From the NCBI GenBank assembly GCA_964484305.1, contig CAZAEI010000001.1, positions 26,936 to 90,935 on the forward strand: DNA of 64,000 nt, in the 5' to 3' direction. Under the pieces are notes generated by a model. It saw only the letters and a program-made list of their open reading frames with translations. It did not search any database and was not told the DNA's origin. The position numbers and the translations under genes were made by a program. Source of the DNA: an uncultured archaeon. Lineage in GTDB: Archaea > Aenigmatarchaeota > Aenigmatarchaeia > QMZP01. Positions 3,229 through 60,800 of the stretch are shown piece by piece (within the stretch, counting starts at the first letter, position 1; every line of letters starts with the position of its first letter).

Positions 3229-3299
3229 GATATATTATTGTTCACCATGGATTATATTAATGTGAACAACTAGAAAATCTGCATTGTTTCACAACTACA

Positions 3300-4832: not shown

Positions 4833-4933
4833 CCCGGACAGGTTTTTTATATTCCCAGTTACTATATATACTGAATCATATCAGCAACACGCCGGGGCTG
4901 ACCCGGCTGTTTCAATATAGTTCAGGTGTTTTC

Positions 4934-6295: not shown

Positions 6296-6319
6296 GTTCA
6301 ACTTGTATAAGGCGATTTC

Positions 6320-6589
6320 ATGGAACTCACAGCAACTGAGAAGGACAAGGAAAAAATAAGGGTCGAGGTCAGGGGAGAGACCCACACCATGCTCAACCTC
6401 ATAAGGGAGAATGCCTGGAAGGCCGGGGCCAGGCAGGCATCCTATATCATCCAGCACCCCTACATATCCCAGCCCGAGATTATCATAAGGTCCAAGAAAC
6501 CGGCCAAGACCCTCCAGGACGCTTCACAGATAGCGATAGACGACAGCAGAGAGTTCTCAAGGGCATTCAAGAGGGCACTGAAGAAATGA
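6320..6589 (+). CDS. rpoL: DNA-directed RNA polymerase subunit L (Rpo11/RpoL)
   Basis: 89 aa. MELTATEKDKEKIRVEVRGETHTMLNLIRE...IQHPYISQPEIII matches the archaeal RpoL pattern (E.EDHTLGN...HP). Confidence 0.75.
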   Translation: MELTATEKDKEKIRVEVRGETHTMLNLIRENAWKAGARQASYIIQHPYISQPEIIIRSKKPAKTLQDASQIAIDDSREFSRAFKRALKK

Positions 6590-6643
6590 ATTTAAATAAG
6601 TTATTTAAACAAGTTTCTACCATAGAGTAACAACGGTGTTTGC

Positions 6644-36669: not shown

Positions 36670-36897
36670 ATGAAGCGGCAGGATGGCGACATAAAGGGAA
36701 GAATTCTTAAGCTTATCTCTAGGAAGCCATATGGTCTGAGCATTGAGGAGATTTCGAGAGAGCTGAAAATAAACAGGGCCACTACTGTAAAATATCTTGC
36801 GTTTCTGGAAGGCCAGGGGCGGATTCTTGTGAGGGAGCTGGGCAAGGCCAAGCTACACTATCCAAGGACGAGGAGGGTTGAGGCATGGCTGCTCTAG
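36670..36897 (+). CDS. small winged-helix transcriptional regulator
   Basis: 75 aa. Its pattern (GRILKLISRKPYGLSIEEISRELKINRATTVKYLAFLEGQGRIL) is a typical ArsR/TrmB-like wHTH. Its 3' end overlaps the giant ORF's start by 13 nt. Confidence 0.6.
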   Translation: MKRQDGDIKGRILKLISRKPYGLSIEEISRELKINRATTVKYLAFLEGQGRILVRELGKAKLHYPRTRRVEAWLL

Positions 36898-39800
36898 AGC
36901 TTTCCCCCGGAACGGCAACGCCAGGCAGGAGAATGAAGAGCAGCCTCAAGAGCTCAGCCGGCATTATAGGTCTGTTATCGCTGATTCTGGCCGTGGGGTG
37001 TGTCTGGCTGCTGGTGGTCAATACGGCAGTTTCCCAGAAGGGTGTCGAGATTGTCACCGATAAGGAGGCATATAAGCAGGGGGAAGTTGTATCTGCCTTC
37101 ATATCAGGCCCTGCCAACATCAGCTTCAGCCTGGATATATTCGAGCCGGACAACCAGAGCATATTCCAGCTAAGGAACGAGAGCCTCAATGAAGAGGGTG
37201 AATTCAATCTCTACATCATGGCATATGAGAAACCGGGCATGTATGAAATCATTGTCTGGAACGAGAACCTTGCATTATCATGCACATTCGATGTGCTGAG
37301 ACCGGAGGGTATGTGGGGAGTAAATGGCTCTGGGAACCAGACCCCTGAGAATAAGACTTCAGGAGAGATTAACATCACCCTGGATATGGGTAACCAGACT
37401 GATAATGAGACCGGGCAGGAGAACCAGGGTGTTGTGGACATAATTAAACAGGTTCTTGAGATTCCGGAGAACAGGAGCCTGACTGCTGGAATTCAGGAGA
37501 CAGTTAACCTCTCTGAAACAGACTCCAATGAGAGTCTTTCTGAGTGTTTCAGGGAAAACGTAACAGGACCTGTCGATAACGCCTCCCTCGAAGTTAACCT
37601 GACCCTGGATGAGTCTGTTGTTCTGAGATCTGAGTCGCTGGAGGAGCTTGTACAGGGCGAGGCTTTTGTGGGCAGGCCTGTGAGATGGGTGAAGAAGATA
37701 ATGATGCCTGTACCAAGCAACATAAAGGTAGAGATTCCTGAACATGCATTTAATGTGAGTGTCTCTAGGGTTGCTGGGGGGATGAGGCAGAGAATTGAGG
37801 AGCAGGGACTGAAGAGAGTCCATGATACCCTAGAGCTAGACAATGCCACAGAGGTGGAGGTTGAATACTTCACAGAGCCGCCACAAGTCATGGAAGACGT
37901 CATCTCACAATACAGGAAGAGGATAACAGTCTATTCTGACATGCACTATGAAAACGTCCTGGCCTGGACAGAGATAGAGGAATTCCCTGAGGACAGTATC
38001 AGCCTTTACTGGTTCAGAGACGGGGAGAGGGAGCTTGTCGGAAGTGTCGATTACATCGACAGCAACGGAAACGGTATGATAGACAGGCTGGAATGGGTTG
38101 TTCCGCACCTGAGCAACCAGACATATGAGGTGGATATAGCCATACTCAACGTCCAGAGCTATCCTTCACTCTACGGCAACTGGACCGTGATGTTCAGCAC
38201 GACCGGGCAAGCGAACCTGACCATCACTGCTGTTAACGGGACGTCATGGAGCGATTCAGTTGGGGATAATGAGATGATGTTCCTTGAAATCAGGTGTGGT
38301 GATGAGGTTCTCGAATATGAGTGGATAGACAACGGCCCCTACAACTCATCCGTATTCATCGAGGATTATTCCTGCAATGAAACGGGCCATGAAACCAGCA
38401 TGGTCCTAGATGCAGGCAAGCACATGCTAGAGTTCAGGTTCGGAAACCTTGTTGGATATGCCTACAACTCCCTGGGAAGCCCCGTGTTCGAGACATATTC
38501 GGAGGCAGGATCGCCCGGCAATGTGTATTCGGTTGACGTCGACCCGCCATCCGGGACAGAAGGGGGTGACCTGCTTCTGGCTGTCTTCACCCACGACAGC
38601 ACATCAGGAACGCTCAGCTCTCCTGGCGACTGGACTGACCTCATGAGCAGCACCAGCACAGACGGCAGCACCTTCCTCATATCATACAAGGTAGCAGGCA
38701 GCGACGAAACCGGACCCTACACGTTCTCGAGCACTGACACCGACCAGCTTGCAGTTGGTGTGGCAAGGTTCAGCAACGTCGATCCCAGCAACCCCATAAA
38801 CTGCCAGTCCAGCGTAAGCATAGGGAACAGCAATGCCCCGCAGGCCCTGGCATGCACGACTAACATGGACGAAACCCTCGTTGTCAGGATGATGGCCGCG
38901 GACGATGACGACTACGGCACCCCGGGCAACTATCCCGGGGGGCACACGGGCGCGTTCACCGTGCAGTCGACAGGGAGTTCTGGTGAAACCCACTGCGCAA
39001 TGGCATATACGGATCAGGCCCTGGCCGGCTCGACAGGGACAGCATCATTCAGCATGAGCGCAAGAGAGCAGTGGGGAACGCTCACCGTCGCCCTGACTCC
39101 CATAGACGTAACGCCGCCGAACATAACAGACGCCCGGTTCGAGCAGACCCTGGTCATCATGAACGATGCGATCCTGTTCAACGTCAGCGTGGATGACAAC
39201 AAGTCAAGCGTGGACAAGGTCATCGCAACCTTCAGATATCCCAACGACACAAGGGTTAACGTGACCATGAATCATGACAGCGGGCCCCAGCCCCCCTGGG
39301 ATTCCACTGACATGGAAAGCAAGGAGCGTCAGGCAAAGGCAATGGATTCCACCATGGCCGAGGCCAACTACGATTTCAGCACGGGTGGGGGAACCGACAA
39401 GTTCGGCTGGAGCCACAACAACGTCGATGCAGGAGAGAGCGTGCCTCCCTTCCAGTCAATAAGCCCATGGAACTACGTCTACACCCAGATGTACAGCGAG
39501 GCAGGCTATGCCGCCCTTGGTAGCATGGACCAGAGCTTTTATGCCTGCATTGACCCAGGCTTCGGGGATTATTCTGTTCTTGCGCTCGACTTCATTGGCA
39601 TTGCAGAAGACCCCTCGGACATCAATGAAATCAACATCTCGTGGATTGGATACAGGCAGACATCGAACTACATGAAGGTGATGCTCAGAAACCAGACAGA
39701 GGGGAGCTGGGATTACACGGAATGGGATATAACCTCAACCTCCTCGCCAGGAGAGTACCATGAATGGGTTCTGAGCGGTGAGGATTTCGAGAAGTATGTC

Positions 39801-42800
39801 GTGGATGGAAGGCTTCTCATGATGCTCACTGTTGATGACGAGACCAACCAGCAGTTCTGGACGGATTTCGTGAACCTCAATGTAAGCTACGGGAAGCCCG
39901 GGGTGGATGATGACGGCAACTCCTCGTGGAGGGAATATTCGTTCACGAGCGCGGACGATTTTGACAAGATTACCGCAATCGAAATCCAGACCGAGGTGAG
40001 CTACTATGACCCGAGGGGCTCATACACCGGGGGAAGCAGCCTCCCTGACCTGGAGGTGCAGGCATGGGACGGAGACAGCTATGAGCCGGTGTTTCTCTAT
40101 GACATCAGCAGCTTGATGGGGGACGAGACCTACAACACCACAGATACCAATTTCACGGAGAACATCACGGATTCTGCCATAATGGATGCCTGGGAAACTG
40201 CAGACAACAGGAGGATAAGAATCAGGGGAGTCTACATGGACATGAACGGCGGCTACAACGACACCATGAACTGGACAGGTGTGTGGGCAACGATACACTA
40301 CGAGAACACGAGCGGCTACTTCCTCTACAACTGGGCTGATACAGCATCACTCGGGATATACAACGTCACGGACATCTATGCCAATGACACCTACAACAAC
40401 GTAAACCACACGACCTACACTGACCTATATTTCGAGGTCGTGACTGCGCCACCAATATGGAGAAACCAGGGAACTAGTGAAATCGAGGATACCATAGAAC
40501 TCGGTGATTCAATGACACTGTATGCGCAGGGAAGCGATGACTTCGGCCTCTGGGAGGCCATCCTGGCAACGGATGAGAGCGGGGAGTGGGTAAACCACTC
40601 TGGCGTCTACGGCTCGCCAATGAATCTGGGCAATGTCACTGACTGGGTCTGGTCAAACTTCACCTGGAATAACGCATCCTTCCCGACAGGAGCAACGATT
40701 TCATGGAGGATATGGTACAAGGACAACACCTCGAACTGGAACGCCACCAACATCCTGACCTTCGACATTGTTGATACGACCCCGCCTGGCTATCAGTATG
40801 ACTCGGACAACTCATCCGGCGCTGCATCAGAGAAGGATACTGTATCGGCATCGGCTTACTGGAGCGATGTGGGTGATTTGGACTATGCAATTTTGAGGAG
40901 CAATGAGAGTGGAGGCTGGGTTAACACGAGCTATTACGGGTTTGGCGAAAATCCGGAGTATTCCAACTTCAGCATTGACACTACAGGGCATCCTGATGAA
41001 ACCATATGCTGGGTTATCTGGGCCAATGACACGAGTGGGAATTTGAATGATTCGATGAGTCAGCACTGCTTTGATGTGAGGGACACTGCTCCGCCGGAAT
41101 ATGAATGTGATTCGGATGATTCGGGCGGGAGCGTGGATGAGGAAGTGAATGTAAAGGCATCTGCATACTGGGATGACAGCCTGGATCTGGATTATGCGAT
41201 ATTGAGGAGCAACGAGACAAGTAGCTGGTTGAACACGAGCGAGTATGATTTCTTTTTGACGCCTGATTATTCCAACTTCACTATCGGCACTTCAGGTCAT
41301 CCCGGGGAAACTATATGCTGGGTTATCTGGGCCAACGACACTTCGGGGAACCTGAATGATTCAATGAGTCAGCATTGCTTTGATGTCAATGATGTAAGTC
41401 CGCCTACTTATATGTATGACCAGGATGACTCTGGTGGGGCAGTGGATGACGGGGAAACCGTTGGGGTATCTGCATACTGGGATGACAACCTCGAGCTGGA
41501 AACTGCCATGTTGAGGAGCAACGAGACCGGGGGCTGGGTGAACACTAGCGGGTATGAGTTCACGGGGACCCCTCAGTATTCGAACTTCAGCATTGACAGC
41601 AGCGATCATCCTGGGGAGACAATCTGCTGGGTTATCTGGGCCAATGACACCAGCGGGAATTTGAATGAGAGCATGGAGCAGCACTGTTTCTTTGTTAATG
41701 ATATCACGCCGCCTTCCTATCTGTATGATTTGGATAATTCGAGCGGGTCGGTTGATGATGGTGAGACTGTCCAGGCTTCGGCGTATTGGGATGATGACGT
41801 TGAATTGGACAGCGCTGTGCTGAGGAGTAATGAAACGGGTAGCTGGGTTAACACGAGTTATTATGGATTTGGTTCAACGCCTGGGTATTCGAACTTCAGT
41901 ATTGACAACAGTGGTCATCCTGGGGAGACAATCTGCTGGGTTATCTGGGCCAATGATACTTCGAGTAATTTGAATGTGAGTATGGGTCAGCACTGTTTCG
42001 ATGTCAGGGATGTGACGCCGCCTACGTATCTCTATGACCAGGATGACAGCGGGGGTCTGGCGACTGAGGGTCAGGTCGTGCAGGTTTCTGCTTACTGGGA
42101 TGATGACCTTGAACTGGAGAGTGCTGTGTTGAGGAGTAATGAAACCGGGGGCTGGTTGAACACGAGCTACTATGGGTTCACTGGTAAGCCTCAGTATTCG
42201 AACTTCTCGATTGACAGCAGTGGTCATCCTGGGGAGACAATATGTTGGATCATCTGGGCCAATGATACTTCGGGTAATTTGAATGGGAGTATGGGTCAGC
42301 ATTGCTTCTACGTAAACAAGCCGCCACAGATAAATTCTGCAGAGTTCAATCAGACCACGATAAACCAGTACGAGAGCGTGCTGCTCACCGTGAACGTGAC
42401 TGACCCGGATGGTGTGAGTATGGTCATAGCAACCTTCCAGTACCCTGATTTGAGCACGGTCAATACCACCCTTAGCCAAGATGCAGGGGACAACTATACA
42501 TACGAGTGGATCGACACGTCGCTTGCAGGGAACTACAACGTCACCATAGTGTATGCGAACGATGGCTTTGATAGCTGGAATTCCACCATATACACAACTC
42601 TGGGATTCGATGTAGTTGGTGATGCACCACCCACTTCCACGCTTAATGTGCCTGATAATGGGAATATAACCAGGACCACCACAACGGTTGTGTTCAACTG
42701 CAGCGGATACGATGAAGTCAACCTGATAAACGTGACGCTGTGGGGAGACTGGCTCGGCTGGCACGCAAACGAGACCAACACCTCAGGCTATGATGATGCT

Positions 42801-45800
42801 GACTACATGTTCACCAAGACCATACCCGATGGCGACTATGTGTGGAACTGCTATGTTTGTGACTCTTTGGACCAGTGCTCTTTCGCTCCTGAGAACTACA
42901 CCTTCAGTGTGAACAGGTATCCCTACTATGAGAACGATGTTGACAACTCGAGTGGGGCAGTGGATGACGGAGAGGCTGTGGGGGCTTCGGCGTACTGGTA
43001 TGACCCCTACGGTGACCTGGATACCGCTATATTGAGGAGTAATGAAACGGGTTCGTGGGTTAACAGCAGCTATTACGGGTTCAGTTCGACGCCTGAGTAT
43101 TCCAACTTCACCATTGACACCACAGGGAATCCGAATGAAACCATCTGCTGGGTCATCTGGGTCAATGACACGGTCGGTAACCTGAACTCGAGCATGGGTC
43201 AGCACTGCTTCTTTGTTAACGATGTGAATTCACCGCAGTTCAGCAGTGCACAGACCAACCACACCTCTGTCACAAAGGGGGCCGTCCTGCTGGAGATGAC
43301 GGTTAATGATGATGTGAGTGTTAACAGCGTGTTGTTCGATATCAATTCAACGAATTACAGCTATTCCGGGGTGAGTGGTGATGTCTATGAGTATTACTTT
43401 GACTGCCAGGTGTTCGGCTCAGGAACGTGGCACTGGAACGCCACTTGGGCTATTGACGGCTCCGGTAACCAGAACTACACCATGGGTGAGGGCCTTCCCC
43501 AGTGGTTTGAATGCGATGCCGATGCCCCATCAGTAGGTGGGGAACAGGTCGATGTGGGCGCCAGCAACAGCGTGGTAAGGCTCAACCTGACTGTCACTGA
43601 CAACTTCGGAGTAGACACCGTGGTTTTTGAATTGGATGAGACAGGCGCTGGGTTAGGAGTGAACAACTACACCCAGACTGGCAGTTCCGGGGATGAGTGG
43701 TATCTTGTTTATGACTGCACCTCTACGGGAACGGTCTACTGGAACGGGGTTTATGCCAATGACACTGCAGGGAATTATGACTCAAACCTGAGCGTGGGGC
43801 TTTCCTTCTACTGCGACCTGGATGAGCCCGGGTGGTCCGGGCAGGGCCAGAACAGCAGCAACCCGGTTGCAGGGGAGGATGTCAGCGTGCATGCGTACTG
43901 GACAGATAACTATCTGCTGGGAAGCGCCCTGCTCGAGACCAACAGGAGCGGCTCACGGGTGAACGAGTCGTATCTGAGTCTGAGCGGGGCTGGGGACTGG
44001 AGCAACTTCACCGTGGACACCACAGGGCATGACGGGAAAACCGTTGCATGGAGAATATATGCAAACGACACCTTCGGGAACCTTAATGCCACGGATGACA
44101 TGAGCTTTGATGTCAGGCACGCATCGACATCGGGGATTCTCTACCAGAACGAGTCCGCGGACGTGACCGGGATAACCCAGACCGATTACAAGCATTACAA
44201 CATCACGCTGGAATTCAACAACACCGGGAACGAGTTTGCATATTCAGCCAGCCTCTCCCTAAGCCTGCCAGGCGGCTGGAGCGCCTACCCGGCCGTGCAC
44301 GAGTGCAGCGATGTCGGGAGCGGCCAGGCCTGCGGGCAGGATTTCAACGTGACCGTGCCTGCAGGAACAGGGCCTGGTGATTATTACGTGTATGGCTATG
44401 CCAACTGGAGCAACCCTGACTCCTCCAAAGGCTCGGCAGAGAACGATACTGTTTTCTCGGTTGAGTCCAACCCGGTTCTTGAGGTTCCAGAGACCGGGCT
44501 GTCAGACACTGTCAGTCACAACAACGAGGAGGTTGTTGGCTCGTTCACTGCCAACTCCACAGGCAATGACAACGTTGTTGGTATAGAGTTCAACTGCACT
44601 GGCGGGAACCTGAGCTATGACTGGGTTGAGTATGACCCCGTTAACATAACCAATCTCGCTGCTGGATATGAGCAGTCTGTAGAGGTAAGCGTGACCGTGC
44701 CTGCAGGCCAGGCTCCCGGGGAATACGGCTGCGTGATAAACGTATCTTCAGCGAACGGCGGACAGGACAGCCTGAACCTCAACACAACAGTTCCCGTTGA
44801 CGACTCGTGGACGAGGAGTCCGGCAACGTGCTCGAAGTCTGCTGCAGTAAATTCGACAGGAACGGTCTGCCAGGTCGTGATACAAAATACGGGCAACGTA
44901 CTGCTCAACGTCACGATAGAGCCTGTTGGCATGACCAACTACACCAATGCAAGCAAGAGTATGTTCCTCGTGGATGCACAGGGTTCGGACTCATTCAACA
45001 TAAACTACAACACCACCGGAGGGGTTGTAGGGTATGAGAACGTGACCACGTACAACATATCCGTCAACGGGACGCCCTACTACCAGCTGACCGAGGTTAC
45101 CCTGATTATAACCCAGGTCCCCTGGTGGAACTCGGAGTGGACCCACAGGAAGCAGATTCTCATATCCGAAAGCATGAACGTCGAAAGGGTGAATGACGTC
45201 ATAATGGTCAACGTGACAGACCTTGACGGGAAAATCAGCAGCTGCGAGAACGAGATAAGGGTTATCTCGATAGAGACCGGTGAGAACGTGGAGGTAACGA
45301 GGCAGATACTTGACGGTGATGATTCGAGCTGGTGTTATGTTGTCTTCCTGGGCAACGTCTCGGCCAGCGCGAGTGATGAGAAGCAATATTATGTTTATTA
45401 TAATAACTCCCAGGCCAGCGCACCCAGCTATGCAGACCCAATGGATTCTTACACTGACTCCGGCGGTTGGTATATGTTCAGCGGCCTGATAGAGTGGAAC
45501 TATTCCTGGTCAGGCGGCAGGGGCGGCGGGCCGATGAGGTCAAGGATAACCACCCCTGAGGGGCAGGAGGTGCTGAGTTCAACCACCTATGACGATGACA
45601 GCTTCCAGAACACGGACACCTTCATATCATTCACCACGGATGTGGACGGGCCCGTGTTCAAGCAGTTCACCCTCACGTCAAGCCTGAGGGGCACCCAGGT
45701 CATGAAGGTTTACGCATACCAGAACTGGTATGAGATAAACAACACGTACACATGCGCATCGGGCTGCGGTGATTACCACATTGTCGGCATAGGTGGGACA

Positions 45801-48800
45801 GACACCACGGGGAGGGGCTGGTATGATTTCTCTTCAACGACCGGGACTGGAGAGCAGACGGCAACGAACTTCTTCTTCGTGGATGACGGGGCGAACAACT
45901 GGGGTGTCGGCGTTGCAGTGAGCGGTGTGCCTGACCAGCCGTTTGACTCGGGAACTGCAAGCGACCTGGATTTCCACACATCAGTGGACGGCTGGTACAT
46001 AAACAACGACCCCTACACCGGCGGCTATCCCTTCTGGATTTTCACCACGGATTACGGAACCACGGGCTCGAACACCACGGCTACCAAGGTGAAGAACCCG
46101 CCCTCTGCATCAGAGGGTGGTGAGGAAAGGCTCATCATCCCTGAGATAGAATCGATAAGGGTGTACAACGTGACCGGACTGGGTGACACTCATTCAGGAG
46201 GGAGTCTGGTGGTGTCTGGCCTGAACGAGAGCTACAACGTAACCCTCAACGAGACCGGGCACGGCTATTACAGGGTCGAGATAAACGTGAGCGTGAGCGC
46301 TGACTGGAACATATCGGTCCTGACAAGGGCATACCATGAGGGCCTTGATTCGGGCTGGCAGGTGGCTTCGAATGACATATGGTACAGCATGGGCGCAGGG
46401 GACTACACCGGCGGCACGCTCTCCGCAGGGAAGGTTACCTGGGACACGGTCCAGGACGGCTCTGTTGAGGCAGGCGGGCACGTCACCTTCTATTACGTGC
46501 TCAACGCGAGCGGTGTGCCTGGCCAGGCAGGGGTACACTTCGTCATAAACGAGACCAATTATGAGAGGGCGAACGGCCTCTCAGTGGATGGGGATTGCTC
46601 TACCTTCATGGTGGAAGACGTGAACTCGCCCCTGTGGAGATACCAGGGCTCGAACGCGACCGTACTGGAGGCAGGCAGCTCGATACTCCTCTATGCCCAG
46701 GCCAGGGACTATGTGGGTCTGGACTACGCTGTCCTGGTAACAAACGAGAGCGGGTCTTGGGTCAACCAATCCGGTGTATACGACTCGCCCATGGATATGC
46801 AGGATGCAGTTGCCTGGGTCTGGTCGAACTTCACCTGGCAGAACTCCTCTGTTGCCGACGGCACCGTGGTGGGCTGGAAGGTGTGGTATAATGATACATC
46901 AGGGAACCTGAACTCAACAGACGAGTCAACCTTCCTGGTAATCTCCCCGCCGAAGTGGTCTGATAACAGGACCTATCCTTTGTCGCCGGCAACCTATGCC
47001 CCCGGACAGGCCTACATGTTCAACATCACCTGGACTGGATACGGAATTGATGACGTAACATTTGAATTCGATGGGGTGAACTATACCTACAAGTCCGGGC
47101 AGGTATCCAAGGATGGGGATGAGTACTACATAACCCTTACTGACTTATCTGTCGGTTCCTACAGCTACAGGTGGTATGCCAACAACACTGCAGCACAGTG
47201 GAACTCCACTGACCAGTCAACCTATTATGTTGAGAAGTCCTCCACATCGATTGGCCTGCTCCTGAACGGGAGCAGTGACAGGACATACCATTACGGAGAG
47301 ACAGCAAACCTCACGGCTGACCTGGACGTCAGCGGCAAGGACATCGATATATGGACGAATCTCTCCGGAAGCTATGAACTCTGGGACTCCGGGCCCGGGC
47401 CACTGGAGAACATCACCGTACTGGGATATGGGCTGGGCTACTACAACGTCACGGCCAACTTCTCCGGTGACGACAACTACACGGCATCGTATGATTCGCA
47501 CACCCTTACCCTGATTGGATGGTCCAGCATCTCCTGGGATTCGCCTGACGGGGGGACAGGCACCCCTGGTGACGTGATTGAACTGGGCTGCCTGGTCAGT
47601 GATGCTAACACGTCATCCCTCATAGGGAACTACCCTGTCACGTTCTACAACGTCACGGGTTCTGGTGAGAGTGAGATAGGGGTTAACTACACCAACTCCT
47701 CTGGCCAGGCTGTCTGGTACTGGGACACATCCGGGCTTCCTGCCGGGGCCTACTATCCGAAGTGTAACATAACGGACAACGAGACCCTGCTCTACAACGA
47801 GACTGACGAGAACGAGGGCAACACGACCTATTACCTGGTTACCCTAGGAACTCCGGTTCTGACCGTGGAGACCCCTGACCTTCTCATAGGTAAGGGCAAC
47901 CCAGGAGACAATGCAACCGTGAGCTGCAGCATCGACTGCTCCGGCGGGAGCTGCCTGGGACTGCAGCTCGGCCTGCAGTACGAGAACGCATCCGGATGGC
48001 ACTGGATAGGCAATGACGGCAACCTGGAGATAAACCACACCAACCCAAAGGACTGTGGGGACGCCCCCTCGTGCTCGGATACCTGGGACATATTCGGCAA
48101 GGTCAATGGAAGCTTTAACCTGAGGTGCAATGCCACTGCCTCGACACCCCTGGAGAGCAACATCAATTCAGGCAGCAACGTCCTGGAGATATACACTGGT
48201 TCCCTGTCCATAGAGTCATGGACGCCTGCGAGCAGTCCATATGACCTCTCCATCTATGACGCCTTTGATATAGACCCTGTGATAAGGTGCACTGCACCCG
48301 AGGGGACAAGGGCAGGATGTGGTGATGTCTTGATGTATGCGAGGACCAACCAGACCGGCTCCCCTGCCACTGACCCCATATCTGGCTCGACTGACATCAG
48401 ACTCGAGAGCGGAAGTGTGGAGCAGTACTACGGCTCGCAATATCCAGGAAGTGATGGGGGATACTACGAGATTCCATTCTCTGCAATAACGGTCAACATG
48501 ACTGTGGGGGGCGATGCAGGGGGCACGGCAAGGCTTTATGACGTCAAGGTAAACTCAAGTGATGCTGACGTTGACGAGGTTGACCCGTCCGACAGGGTGG
48601 CCGTAGGCCATACAGGCCAGATAACCATTGAGATGTACGATGTATCCAGCACCATTGACGAGGGCTTTGACATCATATACAACATATCATGTTCTGGCTA
48701 CAGGTGCCTGGACGTGGAGCTCTGGGCCAGGTATAACGCCACAGGTTCTGATGCAGACACCCTAGCTCCTGTATCACCGAGCCCGGCTGTGTTCAACGTC

Positions 48801-51800
48801 TCCCAGCAGCCAGTAAGGACCCTGAGCATGAGTGCTGGGGAGAGCCAGATTGCGATGACCATATCCGCAGGTGCGGGCTCCAGCCCTGGGGAGTGGAAGA
48901 TTGATTTGTTCGGGAACTCGAGTTATGCAGAAACTGCTGATGAGGACCCCACAGACGGTGTACTAAAGCTCACATCTGTTTCCATAACTGCAGACCTGGC
49001 TTCCCTTTCACCATCCAACATAATGGAGGGTGGGAACTCTGCTGCAAGCGGCTACTGTGAATGCGCTGGCGCGTGCACGAACACCGTGATTTACGTGCAG
49101 TTCAGCGACGGGGACTGGAAGAACATACCCACGGACATCAGTGAGGAGTTGAGCTCCAACGTGACAAGCTACTTCATAGGTTCGCTGAGCGGGACGTCTG
49201 GAACATATGAGTTCAATCTCACTGGACTGGTTGGTGGGAACTACTCTGTCAGGGTGAGGTGTGATTCAACCGATGATGCTGACAACTCATACAACATCAC
49301 CCTTGAGTTGGATGACTATCCAGACTTCTCAGGGTTTGCAGTGAACTCATCTCTGCTCTACAGTGGTCAGGCTGCCAGGTTCAACGTCTCCATACAGGAT
49401 GAAGCTGGGGTGACGTATGCAAACTTCACCATAAACGGCGTGACGTATGACGCAGTCCAGGGCTCTGGAAACGAGTGGTACTATGACTGGGTGTGCTCTG
49501 CATCTGATGCTGACGTGGACTGGACATATGCAGGGGCGAATGACACAGAAGGATACTGGAACGATACATCAGTTATATCCGTATCAACAGAGTGTGATGC
49601 CCAGGCGCCAACAATAACCGGTCCTGTCATCAACGACAGCTCTACAGTAAACCTGGGTACCTGGGTCAGGGTCAATGCTTCCATATCAGACCCAGAGGGC
49701 CACCTGAACACCGTACTGCTCATGGTTGACAGGCCAACATCCTCTGACTACAACATCACGCCAAACGTCAACGGTGATGAATACTACTATGAGTTCGAGT
49801 TGGATGAGACCGGGCAGTGGAGGTTTGAGTTCTTTGCAAACGACACTGGAAACCAGGTCTCCACTGACTATGCAGAGGATGGTCTGAGCAACGAGTACAT
49901 AGATGTCCAGGATATCGAGAGTCCTGTCATCTCTGGCGAGCAGGTCAACACGAGTGTGAGCAACGGGTGGGTTAGGCTCAACGTGACTGCCACTGACAAC
50001 GTCGGGGTAGACACCGTGGTCTTTGAGCTGGACGAAACAGGTGTTGGGTTGGGAGTGAACAACTACACACAGACCGGCAGCTCAGGGGATGAGTGGTACT
50101 ATGAATACCAGTGCACTGCCTCTGGGACGGCCTACTGGAACGAGGTCTATGCCAATGACTCTGCAGGGAATTATGACTCAAACATGAGCGTAGGGCTTTC
50201 CTTCTATTGCGACATGGATGAACCAGAGTGGTCCGGGCAGGGCCAGAACGAGAGCAACCCGGTTTCAGGGGATGCCGTGAGTGTCTACTCCTACTGGACA
50301 GATAACAATGAGCTTGAGAGCGCAGTGCTCAAGACAAATAGTAGCGGTTCCTGGGTGAACGAGTCGTATCTGGGTTTGAGCGGGGCTTCGGGCTGGAGCA
50401 ACTTTACCGTGGACGCCACAGGGCACGACAGCGAGACCATTGCATGGAGGATATACGTTAATGACACTGCAGGCAACCTCAACGTGACTGCTGATATGAG
50501 CTTCAATGTCAGGTATGCCTCTACCTCAGGCATCCTGTACCAGAATGAGAGCGTTGACGTGAGCGGAATAACCCAGTCTGCTTCAATGGACTACAACATC
50601 ACTCTGGAGTTCAACAACACAGGCAACGAGGTTGCATACTCAACAGAGCTCTCCCTGAGCCTGCCATCGGGCTGGAGCGCATACCCCTCGTTGTACGCGT
50701 GCGGTGATGTGGAGAGCGGCCAGTCATGTAAGCAGGATTTCAACGTCACAGTGCCTGCTGGCACGTCTCCTGGTGATTACTACGTGTATGGATATGCAAA
50801 TTGGACCAATCCTGACTCATCGCTGGGTTCAGCAGAGAACCAGACCACCTTCTCGGTGGAGTCCAGCCCGATTCTCGATGTTCCGGAGACCGGTCTGGCA
50901 GACACAGTGAGCCACGGCACTGAAGAGACTGTGGGTACCTTTACGGCAAACTCCACAGGTAACGATGACGTTACTGGGATAGAATTCAACTGCACGGACG
51001 GGAACCTGAGCTATGAGTGGGTAGAGTATGAGCCAGTGAACATAACTACGCTTGGTGCTGGCTCTGAGCAGGCTGTACAGGTTAACGTGACTGTGCCTGC
51101 AGGCCAGGTTCCAGGAGAATACAGTTGTGTGATAAACGTGTCTTCAGCCAACGGGGGACAGGACGGCCTGAACCTCAACGTGACCGTGCCTGTTGATGAC
51201 TCATGGACCAGGAGTCCGGCAACCTGCTCCAAATCAGTGACCGTGAACGAAACCGGTTTGGTCTGCCAGGTCGTGACAGAGAATACGGGCAACGTGCTGC
51301 TCAACGCCACGATAGAGCCAGTGGGCATGACCAACTACACCAATGCCAGCGAGACAATGCTCCTGATTGGTGCACAGGGCTCGGATTCCTTCAACATCAA
51401 CTACAACACCACCGGAGGGTTTGTTGGATACGAGAACGTGACTACGTACAATATATCTGTCAACGGGACGCCATACTACCAGACAGTTGAGGTGACGCTG
51501 AGGATTGTGAAACCCATATGGTGGAATTCATACTGGAATTACAAGCAGAGGCTGAACATCACGAACAGTAATGACACCGACACCCTGATAGAGAATTATA
51601 CAATCAATCTGGCCCTGGACACGGCATCGCTTGTCTCGCTGGGCAAGCTGATGGTAAACGGCTCTGACCTTAGGATAGTCTACTACAATGGCTCTGAATA
51701 CACCGAGCTGGACAGGATAAACACCACTCCATTCAACACGGCAAGCACCACCATACTGTTCAGGCTGCAGAAGAACGTATCTGCTGGTGATTCTGATACA

Positions 51801-54800
51801 AGCTACTATGTATACTACGGAAACCCAGCTGCCTCTGATCCACCAACAGAGGAGAGCAACATATACGCCCTCTGGAGGGATTTCGACAGCGATACTGTTG
51901 ACCAGCAGCCTCCTGGGTGGAGCCTGGCAGAAGACGTGACAGCCCTGAACGTGAGGGACGAGGGATGCTACAGCCCGTCGCAAAGCCTTGATATCGATGC
52001 ATCTGCAAACACATATGCCTGGATTACTTCTCCCGGTCTTTACGGGAATGACTACATAATGGAGGCAAGGGTGAACTACACAGCATCCAACACAAGGCAC
52101 GGCATTGCTGGAAGGGCTTCATCATCAGGAACATATGCCCTGATTCTCTACACGGGTGGTGTGCCTGCACCAGGACTGAGGCTTTCGAGAATAAGCTACA
52201 CGGGCGGCGAGAACGTCATTGTAACCGACACCACTACGAGTCCCTATGACAACATCTGGTATAACGTGAAGTTGCTCATGTATGGAACGAGTATAAAGGG
52301 TAAGTTCTGGAACGTGACAGAATCCGAGCCATCGGGGTGGCAGGTTGATGAGACGGACAGCAACATAGCATCGGGTAGCGTCGGTGTGTACTCGTACTCG
52401 AACGATGACGGATACATAGATGACCTCTCTGTAAGGTACTATCTCGAGCCAGAGCCCACAGCATCCTTCCTGGGTGAGGAAAGGCTCATCATCCCTGAGA
52501 TAGAATCGATAAGGGTGTACAACGTGACCGGACTGGGTGACACTCATTCAGGAGGGAGTCTGGTGGTGTCTGGCCTGAACGAGAGCTACAACGTAACCCT
52601 CAACGAGACCGGGCACGGCTATTATAGGATCGAGATAAACATTAGCGTAAGTGCTGACTGGAACCTGTCTGTCCTGACAAAGGCATATCATGAGGGCCTT
52701 GATTCGGGCTGGGAAGTGGACACTACCAATGACGTCTGGTACAGCATGGGCGCAGGAGACTACACAGGCGGCACGCTCTCTGCTGGGAAGGTTACCTGGG
52801 ACACGGTCCAGGATGGGTCTGTTGATGCAGGGGGTCACGTCACCTTCTATTACGTGCTCAATGCCACTGGAGTGCCTGGGGAAGAGGGGGTTCACTTCGT
52901 TATCAATGAGGCCAACTACGAGAGGGCCAATGGGCTCTCTGTGGATGATGACTACTCCACAATCAGGGTCGATGACGTTACTCCACCAACTTATCTGTAT
53001 GATGGTGACAACTCAAGCGGTTCTGTCAATGATGGCGAGACCGTGGAGGCGTCTGCGTACTGGGACGATGGGGTTGGGCTTGATTATGCAACATTGAGTA
53101 GTAATGAGACAGGGAGTTGGGTTAACAGCAGTTATTATGATTTCGTTGGGACACCCGGTTATTCGAACTTCTCAATTGATAGCAGTGGTCATCCTGGGGA
53201 GACCATATGCTGGGTCATCTGGGCTAATGACACCAGCGGGAATTTGAATGGGAGTATGGGTCAGCACTGCTTTGATGTGAATGATGTCACACCGCCCTAT
53301 TACCAGTATGACCAGGATGACTTGAGCGGGGCAGTTGATGACGGTGAGACTGTTGATGTGTCTGCCTATTGGGATGATGCAACATCTTCACTGTCAACTG
53401 CTGTGATGAGGAGCAACGAAACGGGTAGCTGGGTGAACACCAGTTATTTCCAGTTCACGGGTAAGCCTCAGTACTCAAACTTCTCGGTTGACAGTTCAGG
53501 GCATCCTGGAGAGACCATATGTTGGGTCATCTGGGCTAATGACACATCAGGTAATTTGAATGGGTGTATGGGTCAGCACTGTTTTGATGTTAGTGATGTG
53601 ACACCGCCTTACTATATATATGACCAGGATGACTCTAGTGGGGTAGTGGATGATGGAGATACTGTGCAGGTTTCTGCTTACTGGGATGATGCTATCTCTT
53701 CTCTGGACAGCGCTGTGTTGAGGAGTAATGAGACAGGGAGTTGGGTTAACAGCAGTTATTATGATTTCGTTGGGACACCCGGTTATTCGAACTTCTCAAT
53801 TGATAGCAGTGGTCATCCTGGGGAGACCATATGCTGGGTCATCTGGGCTAATGACACCAGCGGGAATTTGAATGGGAGTATGGGTCAGCACTGCTTTGAT
53901 GTGAATGATGTCACGCCACCTAGTTATCTGTATGACCAGGATAATTCGAGTGGAGCAGTTGATGATGGGGGGACTGTTGAAGTGTCTGCTTACTGGAACG
54001 ATGATGTTGAATTGGAGAGTGCAGTATTGAGGAGCAATGAAACAGGTAGTTGGGTTAACACGAGCTATTATGACTTCGTTGGAACACCTGAGTATTCGAA
54101 CTTCTCGATTGACACTACAGGGCATCCGAACGAGACAATATGCTGGGTTATATGGGCTAATGATACTTCAGGTAACCTGAATTCGAGTATGGGGCAGCAT
54201 TGCTTTGACGTCAGGGATGATACTCCCCCACAGTTCATGGATGCACAAACAAACTACACGAGTATAACAAACCAGGCATTGGAGCTCAACATCACGGTCA
54301 CTGATGACATTGGAGTTAGTGGTGTGTGGTTTGACATAAACGGTACGAACTACAGCTATGACAGCAGCTCTGGTGATTACTACTACTATTACTTCGACTG
54401 CCAGGTGTTCGGTTCAGGGATGTGGCACTGGAACGCTACATGGACAGATGATGTTTCAGGCAACCTTAACTACACCATGGGTGAGGGTCTGCCGCAGTGG
54501 TTCGAATGCGACGTGGACTACCCATACTACAGCCAGGATGTTGACAACAGTTCTGGATCCGTTCAAATCGGAGAGATAGTCAACATGAGCGCATACTGGC
54601 AGGATGGGTATGGCAGCCTTGACACGGCATTGTTGAGAACCAACCAGACAGGGAGCTGGACAGATGAGCAGGATTACTCCTTTGCTTCAACTCCTGAGCA
54701 GGTAATGTTCATGTTTGACACAACAGGACACCTTGATGAGACCATATGCTGGGTCATATGGTCTAACGATACTGTTGGGAACCTCAACAACTCAATGGGA

Positions 54801-57800
54801 CAGCACTGCTTTGACGTGGGGGACTCTATACCGCCCACATATATGTATGACCAGGATAACAGCAGCGGGCTTTTAACAGAGGGTTATTCCGTGGAGGCCT
54901 CTGCATACTGGAACGACAACCTGGAGCTTGAAACTGCGGTGCTGAGGAGTAATGAAACAGGGAGTTGGGTTAACAGCAGCTACTATGATTTCGTTGGTAC
55001 ACCAGGTTATTCGAACTTCTCAGTTGATAGCACAGAGCATGCTGGTCAGACAGTCTGTTGGGTTATCTGGGCGAATGATACCTCAGGGAACTTGAATTCG
55101 AGTATGGGACAGCACTGCTTTGATGTAAACAAGCCGCCACAGATAAATTCTGCAGAGTTCAACCAGACTACGATAAACCAATATGAGAGCGTTCTGCTCA
55201 CAGTGAACGTGACTGATTCGGACGGGGTTAGTATGGTTATAGCGACGTTCCAGTATCCTGATTTGGGCACATTAAATGTCACGCTAAGTCATGATGTTGG
55301 GGATAACTACACCTATGAATGGACAGACACCTCAGTGGCAGGCACTTACAACGTCACTGTTGTATATGCGAATGATACGTTTGATCGCTGGAATTCCAGC
55401 ATATATACATCATTGAGTTTCGAAGTAGTTGGTGATGCACCGCCCACATCCACACTGAATGCGCCTGCGAATGGGAACATCACAAGGACCACCACAACGG
55501 TTGTGTTCAACTGCAGCGGTTATGATGAGGTGGATTTGGTAAATGTATCGCTATATGGTAACTGGTCGGGTGGATGGCACGAGAACGAGACCAACACCTC
55601 GGGTTATGATGCCTCTGACTACATGTTCACCAAGACAATTCCGGATGGTGACTATGTCTGGAACTGCTACGTATGTGATTCCATAGGACAGTGCTCGTTC
55701 GCTCCAGAGAACTACACCTTCAGTGTGAACAGGTATCCTTACTATGAGAACGATGCTGATAACTCGAGCGGAGCTGTGAATGATGGAGAGACCGTGGAGG
55801 CGTCTGCATATTGGGATGACCCACATGGGGACCTGGATACTGCTATATTGAGGAGCAATGAAACAGGCTCGTGGGTGAACACCAGCTACTATGGGTTTGG
55901 TTCGACTCCAGAGTATTCGAACTTCACGATTGATACCACGGGGCACCCGAACGAGACAATATGCTGGGTCATCTGGGTGAATGACACTATTGGGAACTTC
56001 AACAGCTCAATGGGTCAGCATTGCTTTGACGTGAGCGATGTGAGCCCGCCTTACTATGTGTATGATGAAGATAATAGCAGCGGGGCAGTAGATGATGGAG
56101 AGACCGTGGAGGCGTCTGCCTACTGGGATGATGACGTTGAGTTGGAGAGCGCTGTGTTGAGGAGCAATGAGACAGGTTCGTGGGTGAACAGCAGCTACTT
56201 CGATTTCACGGGTAAGCCTCAGTACTCAAACTTCTCGGTTGACAGTTCAGGGCATCCTGGAGAGACCATATGTTGGGTCATCTGGGCTAATGACACATCG
56301 GGGAATTTGAATGGTTCGATGGAACAGCACTGTTTTGATGTAGGGGATGTTAGTCCGCCTAGTTATCTGTATGACCAGGACAACTCGAGCGGGGCAGTAG
56401 ATGATGGAGAGACCGTGGAGGCGTCTGCCTACTGGGATGATGACGTTGAGTTGGAGAGCGCTGTGTTGAGGAGCAATGAAACAGGGAGTTGGGTTAATAC
56501 AAGCTACTATGGATTTGGTTCAACGCCCGATTATTCCAACTTTAGCATTGACAGCACAGACCACCCTGGGGAGACTATATGCTGGGTTATCTGGGCGAAT
56601 GATACATCGGGGAATTTGAATAGCAGCATAGGCCAGCACTGCTTCGATGTTAGTGATGTTACGCCGCCTGCATATCTATATGACCAGGATGATTCTGGTG
56701 GGGCAGTGGATGATGGAGATACTATGCAGGTTTCTGCCTACTGGAATGATGACCTTGAGTTGGACAGCGCTGTGTTGAGGAGCAATGAGACAGGTTCATG
56801 GGTGAACAGCAGCTACTTCCAGTTCGCTGGTGCTCCGCAGTATTCGAACTTCTCAGTTGATAGCACAGGGCATTTTGGTGAAACTGTTTGTTGGGTTATA
56901 TGGGCGAATGATACATCGGGGAATTTGAATAGCAGCATGGGTCAGCACTGCTTTGACGTTGTTGATAACACACCACCGGTTTACCAGTACGATGGTGATG
57001 ACAGTTCGGGGGAGATTGAATCAGGCGATGCTGTGGAGGTATCTGCCTACTGGAATGATACAGCATCCGGCCTTGGCACGGCCGCGTTGAGAACGAACGA
57101 GAGCGGCTCATGGGCAGCCAGGGATTATCACCCGTTCTCGGCAGCCCCCGAATACTCCAACTTTACCATGCAGATAACAGACCATGTTGATGAAACCATA
57201 TGCTGGGTTATATGGGCTAATGACACGGTTGGAAACCTTAATGATTCAATGGGCCAGCACTGCTTTGACGTTGCTGACACAACGCCCCCGGTGTGGTCCC
57301 AGAACTCGACCGACTCGACTGTGGCTGATTCCCTTGTTGAGCACAGGCTGTACTGGGAGGATGCCGGCGGCCTGGCAGGATATATATTCTCCTTTGACAA
57401 CTGCATAGGCAGCTTTGTTAATGACAGCTGGATTCCGATGACAGGGCCTGCAAACTGGAGCAATGTGACAAAATACATCAGTGATACAGTGGGGTGCACG
57501 GTAAGGTGGAGGGTCTATGCAAATGATACCAAGGGCCAGTGGAACGATACGGGCATCATAAGTTATCAGACAACAGAGGACAATCCCCCCTACTGGTATG
57601 ACAATTCAACGAATTCGTCCCTGGCTGGAAGGGCTATACAGCACAGCGTGAAGTGGACCGAGGACAGCGAGCTGTCGGGGTATATATTCTCCTGGCACAA
57701 CGGGGCGAACTGGACTCTGGAGAGTGATAAGGAAGTTGGGACAGGGACGATTCAGATAAGGTTAAATGTAACAGAGAATGTCGATGTTCCAACCAGCTGC

Positions 57801-60800
57801 AGGGACGGGAGCTATGGCAGCGGCCAGAACTATGAGCTCTACAGTAGATGGACCACCCCGGATTCCGGTGAGGTCACGGTCTCGGGCCTGAGATTCTATG
57901 ATTCAGAGGCAAGCCTGTCGAGTAGCGAGAGCATAGAGGTTGCGCTTTACAATGAAAGCGGGGACAGAATAACTGAAATCGTTATCATAACAGGAACCGG
58001 TTCACAGGAATGGCTGACAGGGAAGCTGTCAACCACGGTGAATATCACGCTTGGTGAGAACTACACCATAGGTGTGGGGCCATCAGGCGGTTCAAGCTAT
58101 GCCATTGGCAGGGACACGAGTGCTGACTGCTCCAACTATCCCCCGACAGGGGCAGGAAGCCTGTACGAATCAGCGAGCGGTGGACTGAATGACCAGGTTC
58201 CCGGGAGCCAGCACTCCGATAAATTCAGTTTCTGGGGCATAGAGTACGAGGTCCCGGAAAAGGATGGAAACACGACATATTCCACATACCAGGATGTGGA
58301 TTCGGACCATGAAAGGGTGCTTAACATAACGGTTAAAATCGAGATTGACTCCTACAACCCGGAGGCCTCTGTAAACCAGTCAACAGGCGACCCTGACCTG
58401 GAAGTGGAGTTCTATGATGGAACCGGTTTCGTGAGCATAGGGGTGCTGAACCTGAACGAGAGCTATACAGGAGACACCCTGAACACCACCAATGCCAACT
58501 TCACCCTGACCACGACCGATTCCTCAATCATGGAGGCTTGGGAAACCGCGGATAACCAGGACCTCAGGATAAGGGGTATCTACATGGATTCTGTGAATTC
58601 CACACTTTACGATGAGATTAATTACACGAACGTGTGGGTCACCATCTACCATGAGCAGGAATTCCTTAACGATTCCTGGATGGAGATGACAGGGCAGGTC
58701 AACTGGAGCAATGTAACAAAGGTCGTGAACTCAACAGTCGGGGCAACGATTAAGTGGATTGTGTATGCCAACGACACCACTGACAACTGGAATGCTACGG
58801 ATGTCTTTGTTTATATAACGATAGAGGATACGGAGCCGCCCTACTACCTCTATGACCAGGACAACTCCTCGGGTTCGGTGGTGGTTGGGGACACCGTGCT
58901 GGCGTCCACCCTCTGGAACGACTCTATAAATGAGAATTCCCTCTCAACAGCCATATTGAGGACCAATAAAACAGGCTCCTTCGTCAATGAATCCTATTAC
59001 TCGTTCTCCACAAAGCCCGAATATTCGAACTTCAGCATTAACAGCACTGGGCATTTTGGCGAGACCATATGCTGGGTTATATGGGCAAATGACACTTCAG
59101 GGAATTTGAATTCAAGTATGGTTGAGCGCTGCTTTAATGTCGTTGACATCGAGGCCCCTGCATGGTACCAGAACCAGACCAGCATCGTATCAGTATACTC
59201 CCCGTCACAGCTGTCACTCTTCAACATAACCTGGGTTGATGAGGCAACATCGGTCCACACGGTTTATATAGAGGGGAATTGGTCTGGCTCTCCAGGGAAC
59301 TACACCATGTACATGGAGGGGGACGGGGTATACCAGCACAATCTTACCCTGCATGCTGGCAGCTTCTACTGGAGGTCCTGGGCGAACGACTCCGCAGGCA
59401 ACCTCAATGTCTCGGACACCTGGGAGTTCACTGTGTCCAAGGCAGACATCCTGGTCTGGTTGTTCCTGAACGGCACAGAAGGTGACTTCGGCATGACGTA
59501 CGGGGAGACATCCAATGCCAGCACCTATTCCTCGGCAGGCACGGTGCAGCTCTGGAGGAACGGGTCCCAGGTCGGGAACCCCGAGGTTGAGGTCTTGGGT
59601 GCTGGCTACTGGGAGTATCATGCCAATGCGACAGGTGACCAGAATTATACTGATAACTCCAGCGGGGTGACGTACTACCTGACAGTGGACCAGGCTGCCT
59701 CGTCAGCGGAACTCTATGTGAACGGCTCCAGGGACAACATGGCCCAGGGATATGGGGACAGTGTGAACGTGTCGGGTTACTGCGATTACGGCTCTGTGAG
59801 CCTGTGGAGGAATGAAAGCAGTGTGGCTAACCCGTACAGGGATGTGCTGGGCGCGGGATACTGGAACTTCACCGCGTACTGCTCAGGGGACGGCAACCAC
59901 ACCGGGAGCACGGAGCAGTGGTTCGTGACCGTGAACAGGGCATCCATGCCATTGTATCTGTATATAAACGACTCTGCAGACAACGTGACGCTCACCTATG
60001 GGAACACAACCAATGTGAGCGGGTACAAGGAATATGTAGAGGGTTCACTGGAGCTCCTGCTCAATGGCTCGGCAGGGAGCAATCCTGATATAGACAACCT
60101 GGGTACGGGTTACTGGAACTACACCCTGGTTTTTGACAAGACCCAGAACTACACTGCGAATTCAACAAGCCTGTTCATAACAATGAAGAAGAGGGCATCC
60201 CAAGCAACGCTCACGCTCCTGCCTGAGTCCCCTGTGGCTTATGACACATCCACCACTGCAACATGTGAAGTCACCAACCCCGAGGCAGCAGGCATTCTGT
60301 GGAGGAACGGCACGGACGTGAGCGGGGAGAATGGAACTGCAGTTACACTTGGAGCAGGATACTGGGAGTATGTTTGCAATGTCTCAGAGACAGGGAACTA
60401 CACATCTGCAGAGGACAGCTCGGGCTATACAGTGAACACGGCATCCTGCGGGATAGAACTCTACCTGAATTCAGGGGCTGTTAATCAGGACAACACAATA
60501 ATCTACGGGACCGATGCAAACGCAACAGCATACATCAATTTCACGCAATCTGTCTGGCATCTCGAGAGGAACGGAAGTGTCGTGGATTCAGGAACAGGCA
60601 GCATGCTTCAGGAGATAGAAGGTCTCGGGACCGGCTACTGGAACTACACCGCATTCTGGGACGGTAACGAGAACTGCACTAGCTGCCTTGAGATGTCCTT
60701 CCTCACCGTCCAGAAGGCGGTTTCGGGTACAGAGGTATACATAAACGGGTCAAGGGACAACCTCACCCAGACCTATGGGGAGAGTGTCAATGTTACTGCT

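Follow-up and report, generated by a model that had tools for sequence, protein, structure and literature searches.

Three parts define a fibrillar adhesin: repeats that form a stalk, an adhesive region and an anchor (PMC9210967). The giant adhesin of Mobiluncus mulieris has 7,651 residues and 51 cross-linked immunoglobulin (Ig)-like domains, and in a giant bacterial adhesin a cross-strand disulfide joining adjacent strands of one sheet is present in each repeated Ig-like domain (PMC10619420). The DPANN nanohaloarchaea have giant surface proteins, SPEARE (SVXNc_0300 with 9,409 residues and BNXNv_0298 with 8,880 residues), which are Ig-rich and for which host binding has been proposed (PMC10266531). 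Tandem Ig-like modules in giant surface proteins, DPANN archaea included, are well known. The DNA considered here is a stretch of 64,000 nucleotides from an uncultured archaeon (contig CAZAEI010000001.1, positions 26,936 to 90,935; hereafter the window) in which one giant gene encodes many copies of a 103-residue Ig-like module containing two cysteines. Context and analogy suggest that these modules are the stalk or spacer units of a giant, N-terminally anchored, glycan-coated, adhesin-like surface fibre, a reading to which a probability of about 0.6 is assigned.

The translated giant frame was examined using an iterated profile search seeded with the consensus from a preliminary description of this DNA. 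The search gave 42 module matches in the window part of the frame. Eighteen of these are canonical two-Cys units with scores of 112-144 bits, i-Evalues of 6e-37 to 1e-46 and both Cys at fixed positions, and a nineteenth canonical module is located in the protein tail outside the window. The other 24 matches are divergent relatives, six of them close and about 18 more distant. Their window positions are as follows.

40779..42320, + strand: array 1, five canonical two-Cys modules starting at 40779, 41088, 41397, 41706 and 42015 (profile search, alignment and Tandem Repeats Finder).
42918..43226, + strand: single canonical two-Cys module, whose best DNA match is the unit starting at 55734 (80%).
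52980..54221, + strand: array 2a, four canonical modules starting at 52980, 53289, 53601 and 53913 (profile search, alignment and Tandem Repeats Finder).
54519..55133, + strand: array 2b, two canonical modules starting at 54519 and 54828 (profile search and alignment).
55734..57281, + strand: array 3, five canonical modules starting at 55734, 56043, 56352, 56661 and 56970 (profile search, alignment and Tandem Repeats Finder).
58833..59150, + strand: single canonical two-Cys module, flanked by module matches without Cys at 58533-58820 and 59154-59441.
40446..40775, + strand: close divergent relative without either canonical Cys (67-101 bits; alignment).
43824-44120, 46626-46943, 50220-50513, 57282-57575 and 63579-63899, + strand: the other close divergent relatives, without both canonical Cys (67-101 bits).
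42318..42917, + strand: two distant members of the module family (37-64 bits; alignment).
43230-43817, 46944-47237, 49320-50213, 54222-54491, 55131-55733, 58533-58820, 59154-59441 and 62274-62561, + strand: further distant members of the family (37-64 bits).

The preliminary description had counted 18 canonical copies in three arrays plus single copies, and the profile search found exactly these places. The positions that it gave for six divergent relatives (40446, 43824, 46626, 50220, 57282 and 63579) were also correct but these relatives were said to lack only the second Cys, and both canonical Cys are in fact absent. Alignment of the 18 canonical units reproduced the consensus and the invariant Cys and Trp residues proposed earlier. 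The alignment has a mean column identity of 77% and 27 invariant columns, among them C77, W78, W81, N83-D84-T85, C97 and F98. Tandem Repeats Finder gave periods of 309-312 nucleotides with 74-77% matches to the consensus, and short D-V-T-P-P linkers would join the modules head to tail. Positions 74-100 (ETICWVIWANDTSGNLNxSMGQHCFDV) have a mean majority frequency of 0.92 compared to about 0.73-0.79 elsewhere in the unit. The existence of 18 copies of a 103-residue Ig-like two-Cys module is therefore confirmed.

The preliminary description made no mention of the fact that all of the arrays share one giant gene, being held in a single open frame of over 27 kb. The gene and the segment at its N-terminal end are located as follows.

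36885..64000, + strand: the 5' 27.1 kb of the giant gene, more than 9,039 codons, with the frame unbroken from 36882 to 63998 in a six-frame scan and open to the end of the window.
36939..37037, + strand: N-terminal signal or membrane-anchor segment, MKSSLKSSAGIIGLLSLILAVGCVWLLVV.

The start at 36885 is that set by gene callers in other assemblies. The protein fragment P0003 adds 2,519 residues beyond the end of the window, up to the true stop, and a back-translated DNA pattern of its C-terminus was used to find the 3' end of the gene on a contig with the stop codon (L010). The full product, combining the window part with the 3' part from another assembly, has 11,557 residues, a mass of 1.26 MDa, an isoelectric point (pI) of 4.05, 145 Cys and 615 N-x-S/T sequons for N-glycosylation. 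A Kyte-Doolittle scan of all 11,557 residues exceeded 1.6 only at residues 19-51, the sole hydrophobic stretch in the protein, and showed no hydrophobic segment past residue 51 and no C-terminal anchor. Pfam scans of the window part gave four NEW3/NPCBM_assoc domains together with DUF4082 and a weak match to DUF2341, and those of the tail, in the distal quarter of the protein, gave DUF2341 and Laminin_G_3 (2.4e-18). No enzyme or ATPase domain was found in the Pfam scans of the window part and P0003.

When compared with the three defining parts of a fibrillar adhesin, the giant protein has the length and the stalk: it is 11,557 residues long, and of the 42 family modules in its window part 18 are canonical and stand mostly in tandem. 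The candidate for the cell-surface anchor is the single N-terminal hydrophobic segment, residues 19-51, which may be a signal or an anchor, with no anchor at the C-terminus. The candidates for adhesive domains are Laminin_G_3 and DUF2341 in the distal quarter and NEW3 and DUF4082 in the window part, all of them putatively lectin-like. The stalks of bacterial fibrillar adhesins (Big, Rib and SasG-type; PMC8286594, PMC9210967) are likewise head-to-tail arrays of beta-sandwiches of ~100 residues. These adhesins also share with the giant protein a very long surface polypeptide and lectin-like modules, their membrane or cell anchor has a candidate counterpart in it, and their stalk projects the binding regions away from the cell. 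However, the giant protein is archaeal, its candidate anchor is an N-terminal hydrophobic segment rather than a sortase or type I secretion system anchor, and its unit has five conserved sequons and no match to a Pfam stalk family. The Mobiluncus mulieris adhesin, by far the largest protein of its proteome, has repeated Ig-like domains each with an internal covalent cross-link, as is proposed here. It relies mainly upon ester, isopeptide and thioester bonds whereas no such motif is evident in the archaeal module, for which the only candidate cross-link is a predicted one between the Cys pair on strands F and G. The SPEARE proteins share with the giant protein a DPANN origin, probable in the latter case, a putative signal peptide and a giant ectodomain rich in tandem Ig-like or Fn3-like domains, and contact with a host is proposed for both. 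They differ in having a VirB4/TraG-like ATPase and a membrane region near the C-terminus, neither of which was found in the window part and tail of the giant protein by Pfam and hydrophobicity scans. The giant protein is also longer, at 11,557 residues, and from a different lineage (Aenigmatarchaeota-like, as judged from the oligosaccharyltransferase AglB). Assignment as a SPEARE-type protein was rejected on the lack of a Pfam ATPase domain and of any hydrophobic segment past residue 51.

The arrays are old and under selection. Pairwise DNA identity among the 18 canonical copies is 51-85% with a median of 69%, a wider and lower range than the 75-85% given in the preliminary description, and the unit at 54519 in array 2b is furthest from the others (51-63%). 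Between the copies the nonsynonymous divergence (dN) is 0.24 and the synonymous divergence (dS) is 1.87, which is near saturation, giving a dN/dS of 0.13 and showing purifying selection. Neighbouring units, at 51-78% DNA identity, resemble one another no more closely than distant units do. The units at 52980 and 53601, both in array 2a and not adjacent, are 85% identical, and high-identity pairs are found across arrays (53289 and 56043, 81%; 41706 and 56352, 81%; 42918 and 55734, 80%). As the best-matching units lie in different arrays and neighbours are no closer, the pattern fits old block duplications. Internal block duplications are visible at the protein level between residues 1223-2468 and 5504-6746, 2114-2848 and 4239-4987, and 3070-3357 and 5188-5472. 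A periscope-type stalk of variable length, which needs tandem repeats so similar in DNA that recombination can alter their number, was rejected given the identities of adjacent units and the overall median.

In window coordinates these large segmental duplications, at 56-67% protein identity, lie between 43221-45425 and 49596-51842, 46089-46952 and 52443-53297, and 40548-44285 and 53391-57119. Whole blocks of mixed module types are carried in them, two NEW3 domains and one DUF2341-like domain among the rest. An antisense open reading frame (ORF) of 296 residues (41874-42764, - strand) inside array 1 most probably arises as a side effect of constraint and repetition in the sense frame. It was judged to be spurious as a gene since it sits in a strongly constrained sense frame.

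Repeats of this kind could in principle be an assembly artefact, with collapsed or stuttered repeats, or part of a decaying pseudogene. The short-read contigs of the same organism do break within arrays 2 and 3, one ending at ~53289 and another beginning at ~56616, so that the stretch from 53.3 to 56.6 kb is supported by this window alone. However, four independent assemblies (three metagenomes from the Joint Genome Institute and one Sequence Read Archive run) match the window from 25.5 kb on at 99.97-99.99%. Three of them, L006-L008, reach window position 45.8-46.4 kb and take in the whole of array 1 together with the single copy at 42918, while the fourth, L009, stops at 41036 and covers most of the first unit of array 1. 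A fifth fragment, P0003, matches residues 6579-9039 (56.6-64.0 kb) at 99.96%, including the last one and a half units of array 3. The frame runs for over 27 kb without a stop, the copies differ at 15-49% of DNA positions under the purifying selection noted above, and tandem two-Cys modules occur in other archaeal metagenome-assembled genomes (MAGs) as well. Artefact and pseudogene are thus effectively refuted, and the preliminary view that the arrays are old and maintained rather than an assembly stutter holds. In the short-read data sets the giant gene is present only as fragments of 1,384, 2,978, 5,468 and 4,980 residues.

The beta-sandwich fold suspected in the preliminary description was borne out by an AlphaFold2 model of the module, made with 40 module sequences as the alignment, which is all-beta with eight strands (predicted local distance difference test score, pLDDT, 94.8; predicted template modelling score, pTM, 0.85). 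The model has the features of Ig-like or Fn3-like domains of the E-set type, that is to say a Greek-key sandwich of seven to nine strands in ~100 residues with the N- and C-termini at opposite ends. A two-unit model kept both folds with a pLDDT of 84.7. Its pTM was 0.58 with a shallow alignment of 12 rows, and a fixed rigid interface between modules is not supported. Structurally the module comes closest to PKD and Fn3-like X1 modules of the spacer type (PDB 4xed, 2c4x and 3pdd). These spacers have only 9-14% sequence identity to the module, which has no Pfam PKD or fn3 match, and a Foldseek search of the PDB with the module model gave no match at E<=0.001. The module is therefore, as modelled, an Ig-like beta-sandwich of the Fn3/PKD type without a curated family.

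Searches of family databases agree with the earlier statement that no named domain family could be assigned. A Pfam scan of the 18 canonical units at E<=10 gave no family match, only two chance matches, an NCBIfam scan of the window part of the giant protein gave no family, and a profile search of PDB sequences gave one weak and implausible match, to the Ig domain of Kit (E=0.002). A word-indexed protein search with the canonical alignment gave two matches, a 122-residue fragment (59% identity) and one distant protein. The same type of search with a broader two-Cys alignment gave none at E<=1e-10, the word index probably being limiting. Membership of the PKD families (PF00801 and PF18911, with the WDFGDG-type motif) was rejected as no significant profile match was found in the 18 units, and membership of Pfam fn3 was rejected as none of the 18 units matched. 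Distant family members (P0004 and P0002) gave summed sub-threshold matches to Big_7 (PF17957), DUF4625 (PF15418) and GlgE_dom_N_S (PF11896), Ig-like families which share an ...A-x-D-x-x-G-N... motif in the F-G turn with the distant modules. However, not a single module passed on its own and the 18 canonical units had no match at E<=10, and so Big_7, DUF4625 and other curated Ig-like families were also rejected. A classical Ig domain (V, C1 or I set) has a disulfide between strands B and F packed on the core Trp of strand C; the module has no Cys in strand B and its Cys are on strand F (77) and at the start of strand G (97), so this assignment was rejected too.

The arrangement of the two Cys was compared across 1,198 modules from other proteins. 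Of these, 15 have both, 2 have a single one and 1,181 lack both (Fisher p = 2e-32, a value inflated by shared ancestry). When two-Cys modules of more than 12 proteins (33-61% identity) are aligned, only P3, W28, C77, W78, N90, C97 and F98 remain invariant, and the loop before C97 varies, with five to eight residues between N90 and C97. In the predicted model C77 is early in strand F (75-84) and C97 is at the start of strand G (96-101), F and G being adjacent antiparallel strands in the predicted topology. The periodicity of residues in the alignment suggests that both Cys face outwards. Isolated canonical modules with Cys-free neighbours keep both Cys, which favours a bond within the module. 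We infer one C77-C97 disulfide per module from the joint gain and loss of the two Cys in archaeal homologues and from their location on neighbouring strands.

It is very improbable that the Cys serve instead as a metal or redox site, perhaps together with H71 and H96, or as a link between neighbouring modules or molecules. H71, H96 and M93 are nearly invariant in the 18 window copies, but where homologues keep both Cys the two His are not conserved, H96 being replaced by S, Q, N, T, Y or W, and a His/Cys metal site was rejected for this reason. The strand limits would allow a register in which C77 and C97 are at opposite ends of the module and near its neighbours. An inter-module disulfide is nevertheless considered unlikely given that the isolated two-Cys modules between Cys-free ones retain both Cys, and the apparently outward-facing positions on adjacent antiparallel strands argue against any role other than an internal disulfide. 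Some two-Cys modules in P0029, P0037, P0073, P0129 and P0133 have a second Cys pair in the C'-E region (...VSTCSLSG..WCNKT...), which suggests a module variant with two disulfides.

Sequons are greatly enriched in the giant protein. The window part contains 477 compared to 145 +/- 10.6 in composition-preserving shuffles, 3.3 times the expectation, and the density is 5.3 per 100 residues compared to 0-0.8 in cytoplasmic neighbours. Each canonical unit has 4-8 sequons; the preliminary description, with four to six, had the lower bound right and the upper bound too low. Positions 42 and 83 are sequons in all 18 units, 63 and 90 in 17 and 49 in 16, while position 11 is a sequon in 11 of the 18. 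The enzyme that would attach N-glycans is encoded in the same window, 28 kb upstream of the giant gene.

6644..9085, + strand: AglB/STT3 oligosaccharyltransferase (Pfam STT3, 1.1e-18), with homologues named dolichyl-diphosphooligosaccharide-protein glycosyltransferase.

As far as can be judged from sequence, the giant protein has the attributes of an archaeal N-glycoprotein, namely a predicted extracytoplasmic location, N-x-S/T sequons and AglB in the genome. The sequon excess, the pI of 4.05 and the presence of AglB support a location outside the cell, where the protein would be held by its one N-terminal hydrophobic segment.

An ORF of 1,111 residues (10382-13717, + strand) lies downstream of AglB at a distance of 1.3 kb. 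Its product combines a signal peptide and 61 sequons (5.5 per 100 residues) with a C-terminal membrane segment and a basic tail, has no Pfam match and is likely to be an S-layer or envelope glycoprotein. Archaeal S-layer glycoproteins form lattices, are ordinary in size and often have a membrane anchor or PGF-CTERM at the C-terminus. The giant protein was itself considered as one and rejected as it has a mass of 1.26 MDa and no C-terminal hydrophobic segment, the 1,111-residue ORF being the better candidate.

Such heavy predicted glycosylation raises the question of whether the giant protein is a mucin-like component of the envelope or glycocalyx, the repeats displaying hundreds of N-glycans for hydration, for protection against viruses and proteases or as a matrix, rather than for specific adhesion. 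Halomucin of Haloquadratum walsbyi, with about 9,159 residues, has a proposed role as a mucin-like coat. The 615 sequons of the full protein, their excess over shuffled expectation in the window part, the five fixed glycosylation sites per unit and the very acidic composition would all suit such a coat. However, a separate candidate S-layer glycoprotein of ordinary size is found next to AglB, and the giant protein is made up of folded beta-sandwich domains and lectin-like modules and not of low-complexity mucin repeats. A mucin-like coat is thus judged improbable.

An adhesin-type role can reasonably be inferred from the context, as the surface protein is giant and rich in sequons, would be anchored at its N-terminus and has lectin-like modules. 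The canonical modules would be stalk or spacer segments joined head to tail on their D-V-T-P-P linkers. Each would be stapled by a single cross-strand disulfide from Cys77 on strand F to Cys97 at the start of strand G and would carry about five N-glycans, at N42, N49, N63, N83 and N90, added by the AglB encoded in the window. The arrays would then supply length and resistance to proteases and mechanical force, and would keep the lectin-like modules that lie between and beyond them (NEW3, DUF2341, LamG and DUF4082) at a distance from the cell, where they could attach to a host cell or a surface. With about 110 modules of about 4 nm each, a fibre of about 0.4 um would be expected. Several points weigh against this proposal. 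The conservation of the F-G segment, positions 74-100, exceeds what a passive spacer seems to need, and no recognised adhesive domain was found at the very end of the C-terminus. That the two Cys occur together partly reflects shared ancestry and not many independent events, the predicted strand limits taken alone also permit a register with C77 and C97 far apart, and in a reducing habitat exposed disulfides could be unstable.

The first of these points leads to the strongest rival explanation, that the canonical modules themselves bind. They would form a lectin-like or self-associating Ig array in which the F-G face grips host glycans or zips onto the copies of another cell in the manner of cadherins. 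Positions 74-100 are 92% conserved compared to about 75% elsewhere, W78, N90 and F98 are invariant across distant archaeal homologues, and published work notes that stalk domains and adhesive domains are not sharply separated (PMC9210967). On the other hand, the best structural neighbours are the spacer-type PKD and Fn3-like modules and not carbohydrate-binding modules or lectins, and the conserved sequons N83 and N90 are within the F-G segment, where glycans, if attached, would mask much of the face. Binding by the modules is regarded as unlikely. A more specific form of the idea is that the near-invariant, glycan-framed F-G face is a self-association or host-binding surface by which the arrays zip into a cadherin-like tether between a DPANN-type archaeon and its host, and this is rather doubtful. 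If the F-G face does bind, the module would represent a new family of adhesion domains spread across the archaea. A stalk or spacer function remains the preferred reading for the canonical modules.

The module family is found in other giant archaeal proteins. A broader, exhaustive profile search gave 10,287 cluster representatives at E<=1e-3, of which 643 reach E<=1e-30, and the top matches are proteins of 2,000-7,700 residues with up to 47 module copies. Where names are given, they are 'hypothetical protein' or 'Ig-like domain-containing protein'. The named sources are Micrarchaeota, Woesearchaeota, Aenigmatarchaeota, Altiarchaeota, Hydrothermarchaeales and the cultured Thermococcus siculi, all archaeal apart from one cluster member labelled as a candidate division KSB1 bacterium. 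The two-Cys subtype is present in 10 of the top 150 representatives, and tandem two-Cys modules at 56-67% identity are present in two other unclassified archaeal MAGs. To judge from these sequences, the two-Cys subtype recurs across several archaeal lineages.

The window is archaeal and encodes a diphthamide synthase, a class V FBP aldolase/phosphatase, an HMG-CoA reductase and a short TIM in addition to AglB/STT3. The relatives of AglB with names are all Candidatus Aenigmatarchaeota at 45-55% identity and also include Micrarchaeota and Nanoarchaeota at 40-44%. With AglB as a single marker, the organism is most likely a DPANN archaeon near the Aenigmatarchaeota. Scans of the window for tRNA and Rfam families gave no matches.

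A second repeat family, unrelated to the two-Cys module, occupies window positions 59400-63500 (+ strand) of the giant gene. Its copies are about 85-100 residues long and 29-51% identical, with the motif L-N-G-S...Y-G-x-x-x-N-x-S-A-Y...L-W-R-N-G...L-G-A-G-x-W-x-Y...G-D-x-N-Y-T and a weak match to Big_3_5 alone. The start of the giant gene is overlapped by 13 nucleotides by a gene for a 75-residue protein (36670-36897, + strand) with a weak HTH_11 match, which may be a co-transcribed regulator. At the other end of the gene, outside the window (L010, 128-2217), the stop codon overlaps the ATG of a gene for a 237-residue secreted protein with a C-terminal membrane anchor, and this gene in turn overlaps the start of one for a 458-residue protein with two membrane segments. 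The three genes may form an operon of partner or anchor proteins. Beyond them, on the opposite strand, are genes for two coiled-coil proteins of 1,467 and 839 residues.

What is new here is an uncurated and apparently widespread archaeal module family, its conserved subtype with two Cys and five sequons, and the unusually long protein that carries it. A curated model of the module would give an annotation to much of the archaeal surface sequence now labelled 'hypothetical', given the 10,287 cluster representatives and the lack of a curated model match in the Pfam and NCBIfam scans. At 11,557 residues the protein exceeds the 9,409-residue protein described as the largest in cultivated archaea (PMC10266531). 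With five sequons and one Cys pair per unit, the module offers a clean natural case for the stabilisation of an archaeal extracellular domain by N-glycans and a disulfide, and the homologue in cultured Thermococcus siculi (WP_198300141.1) provides a tractable relative. The giant protein is a concrete candidate for the structure that reaches a host or substrate from an Aenigmatarchaeota-like DPANN cell.

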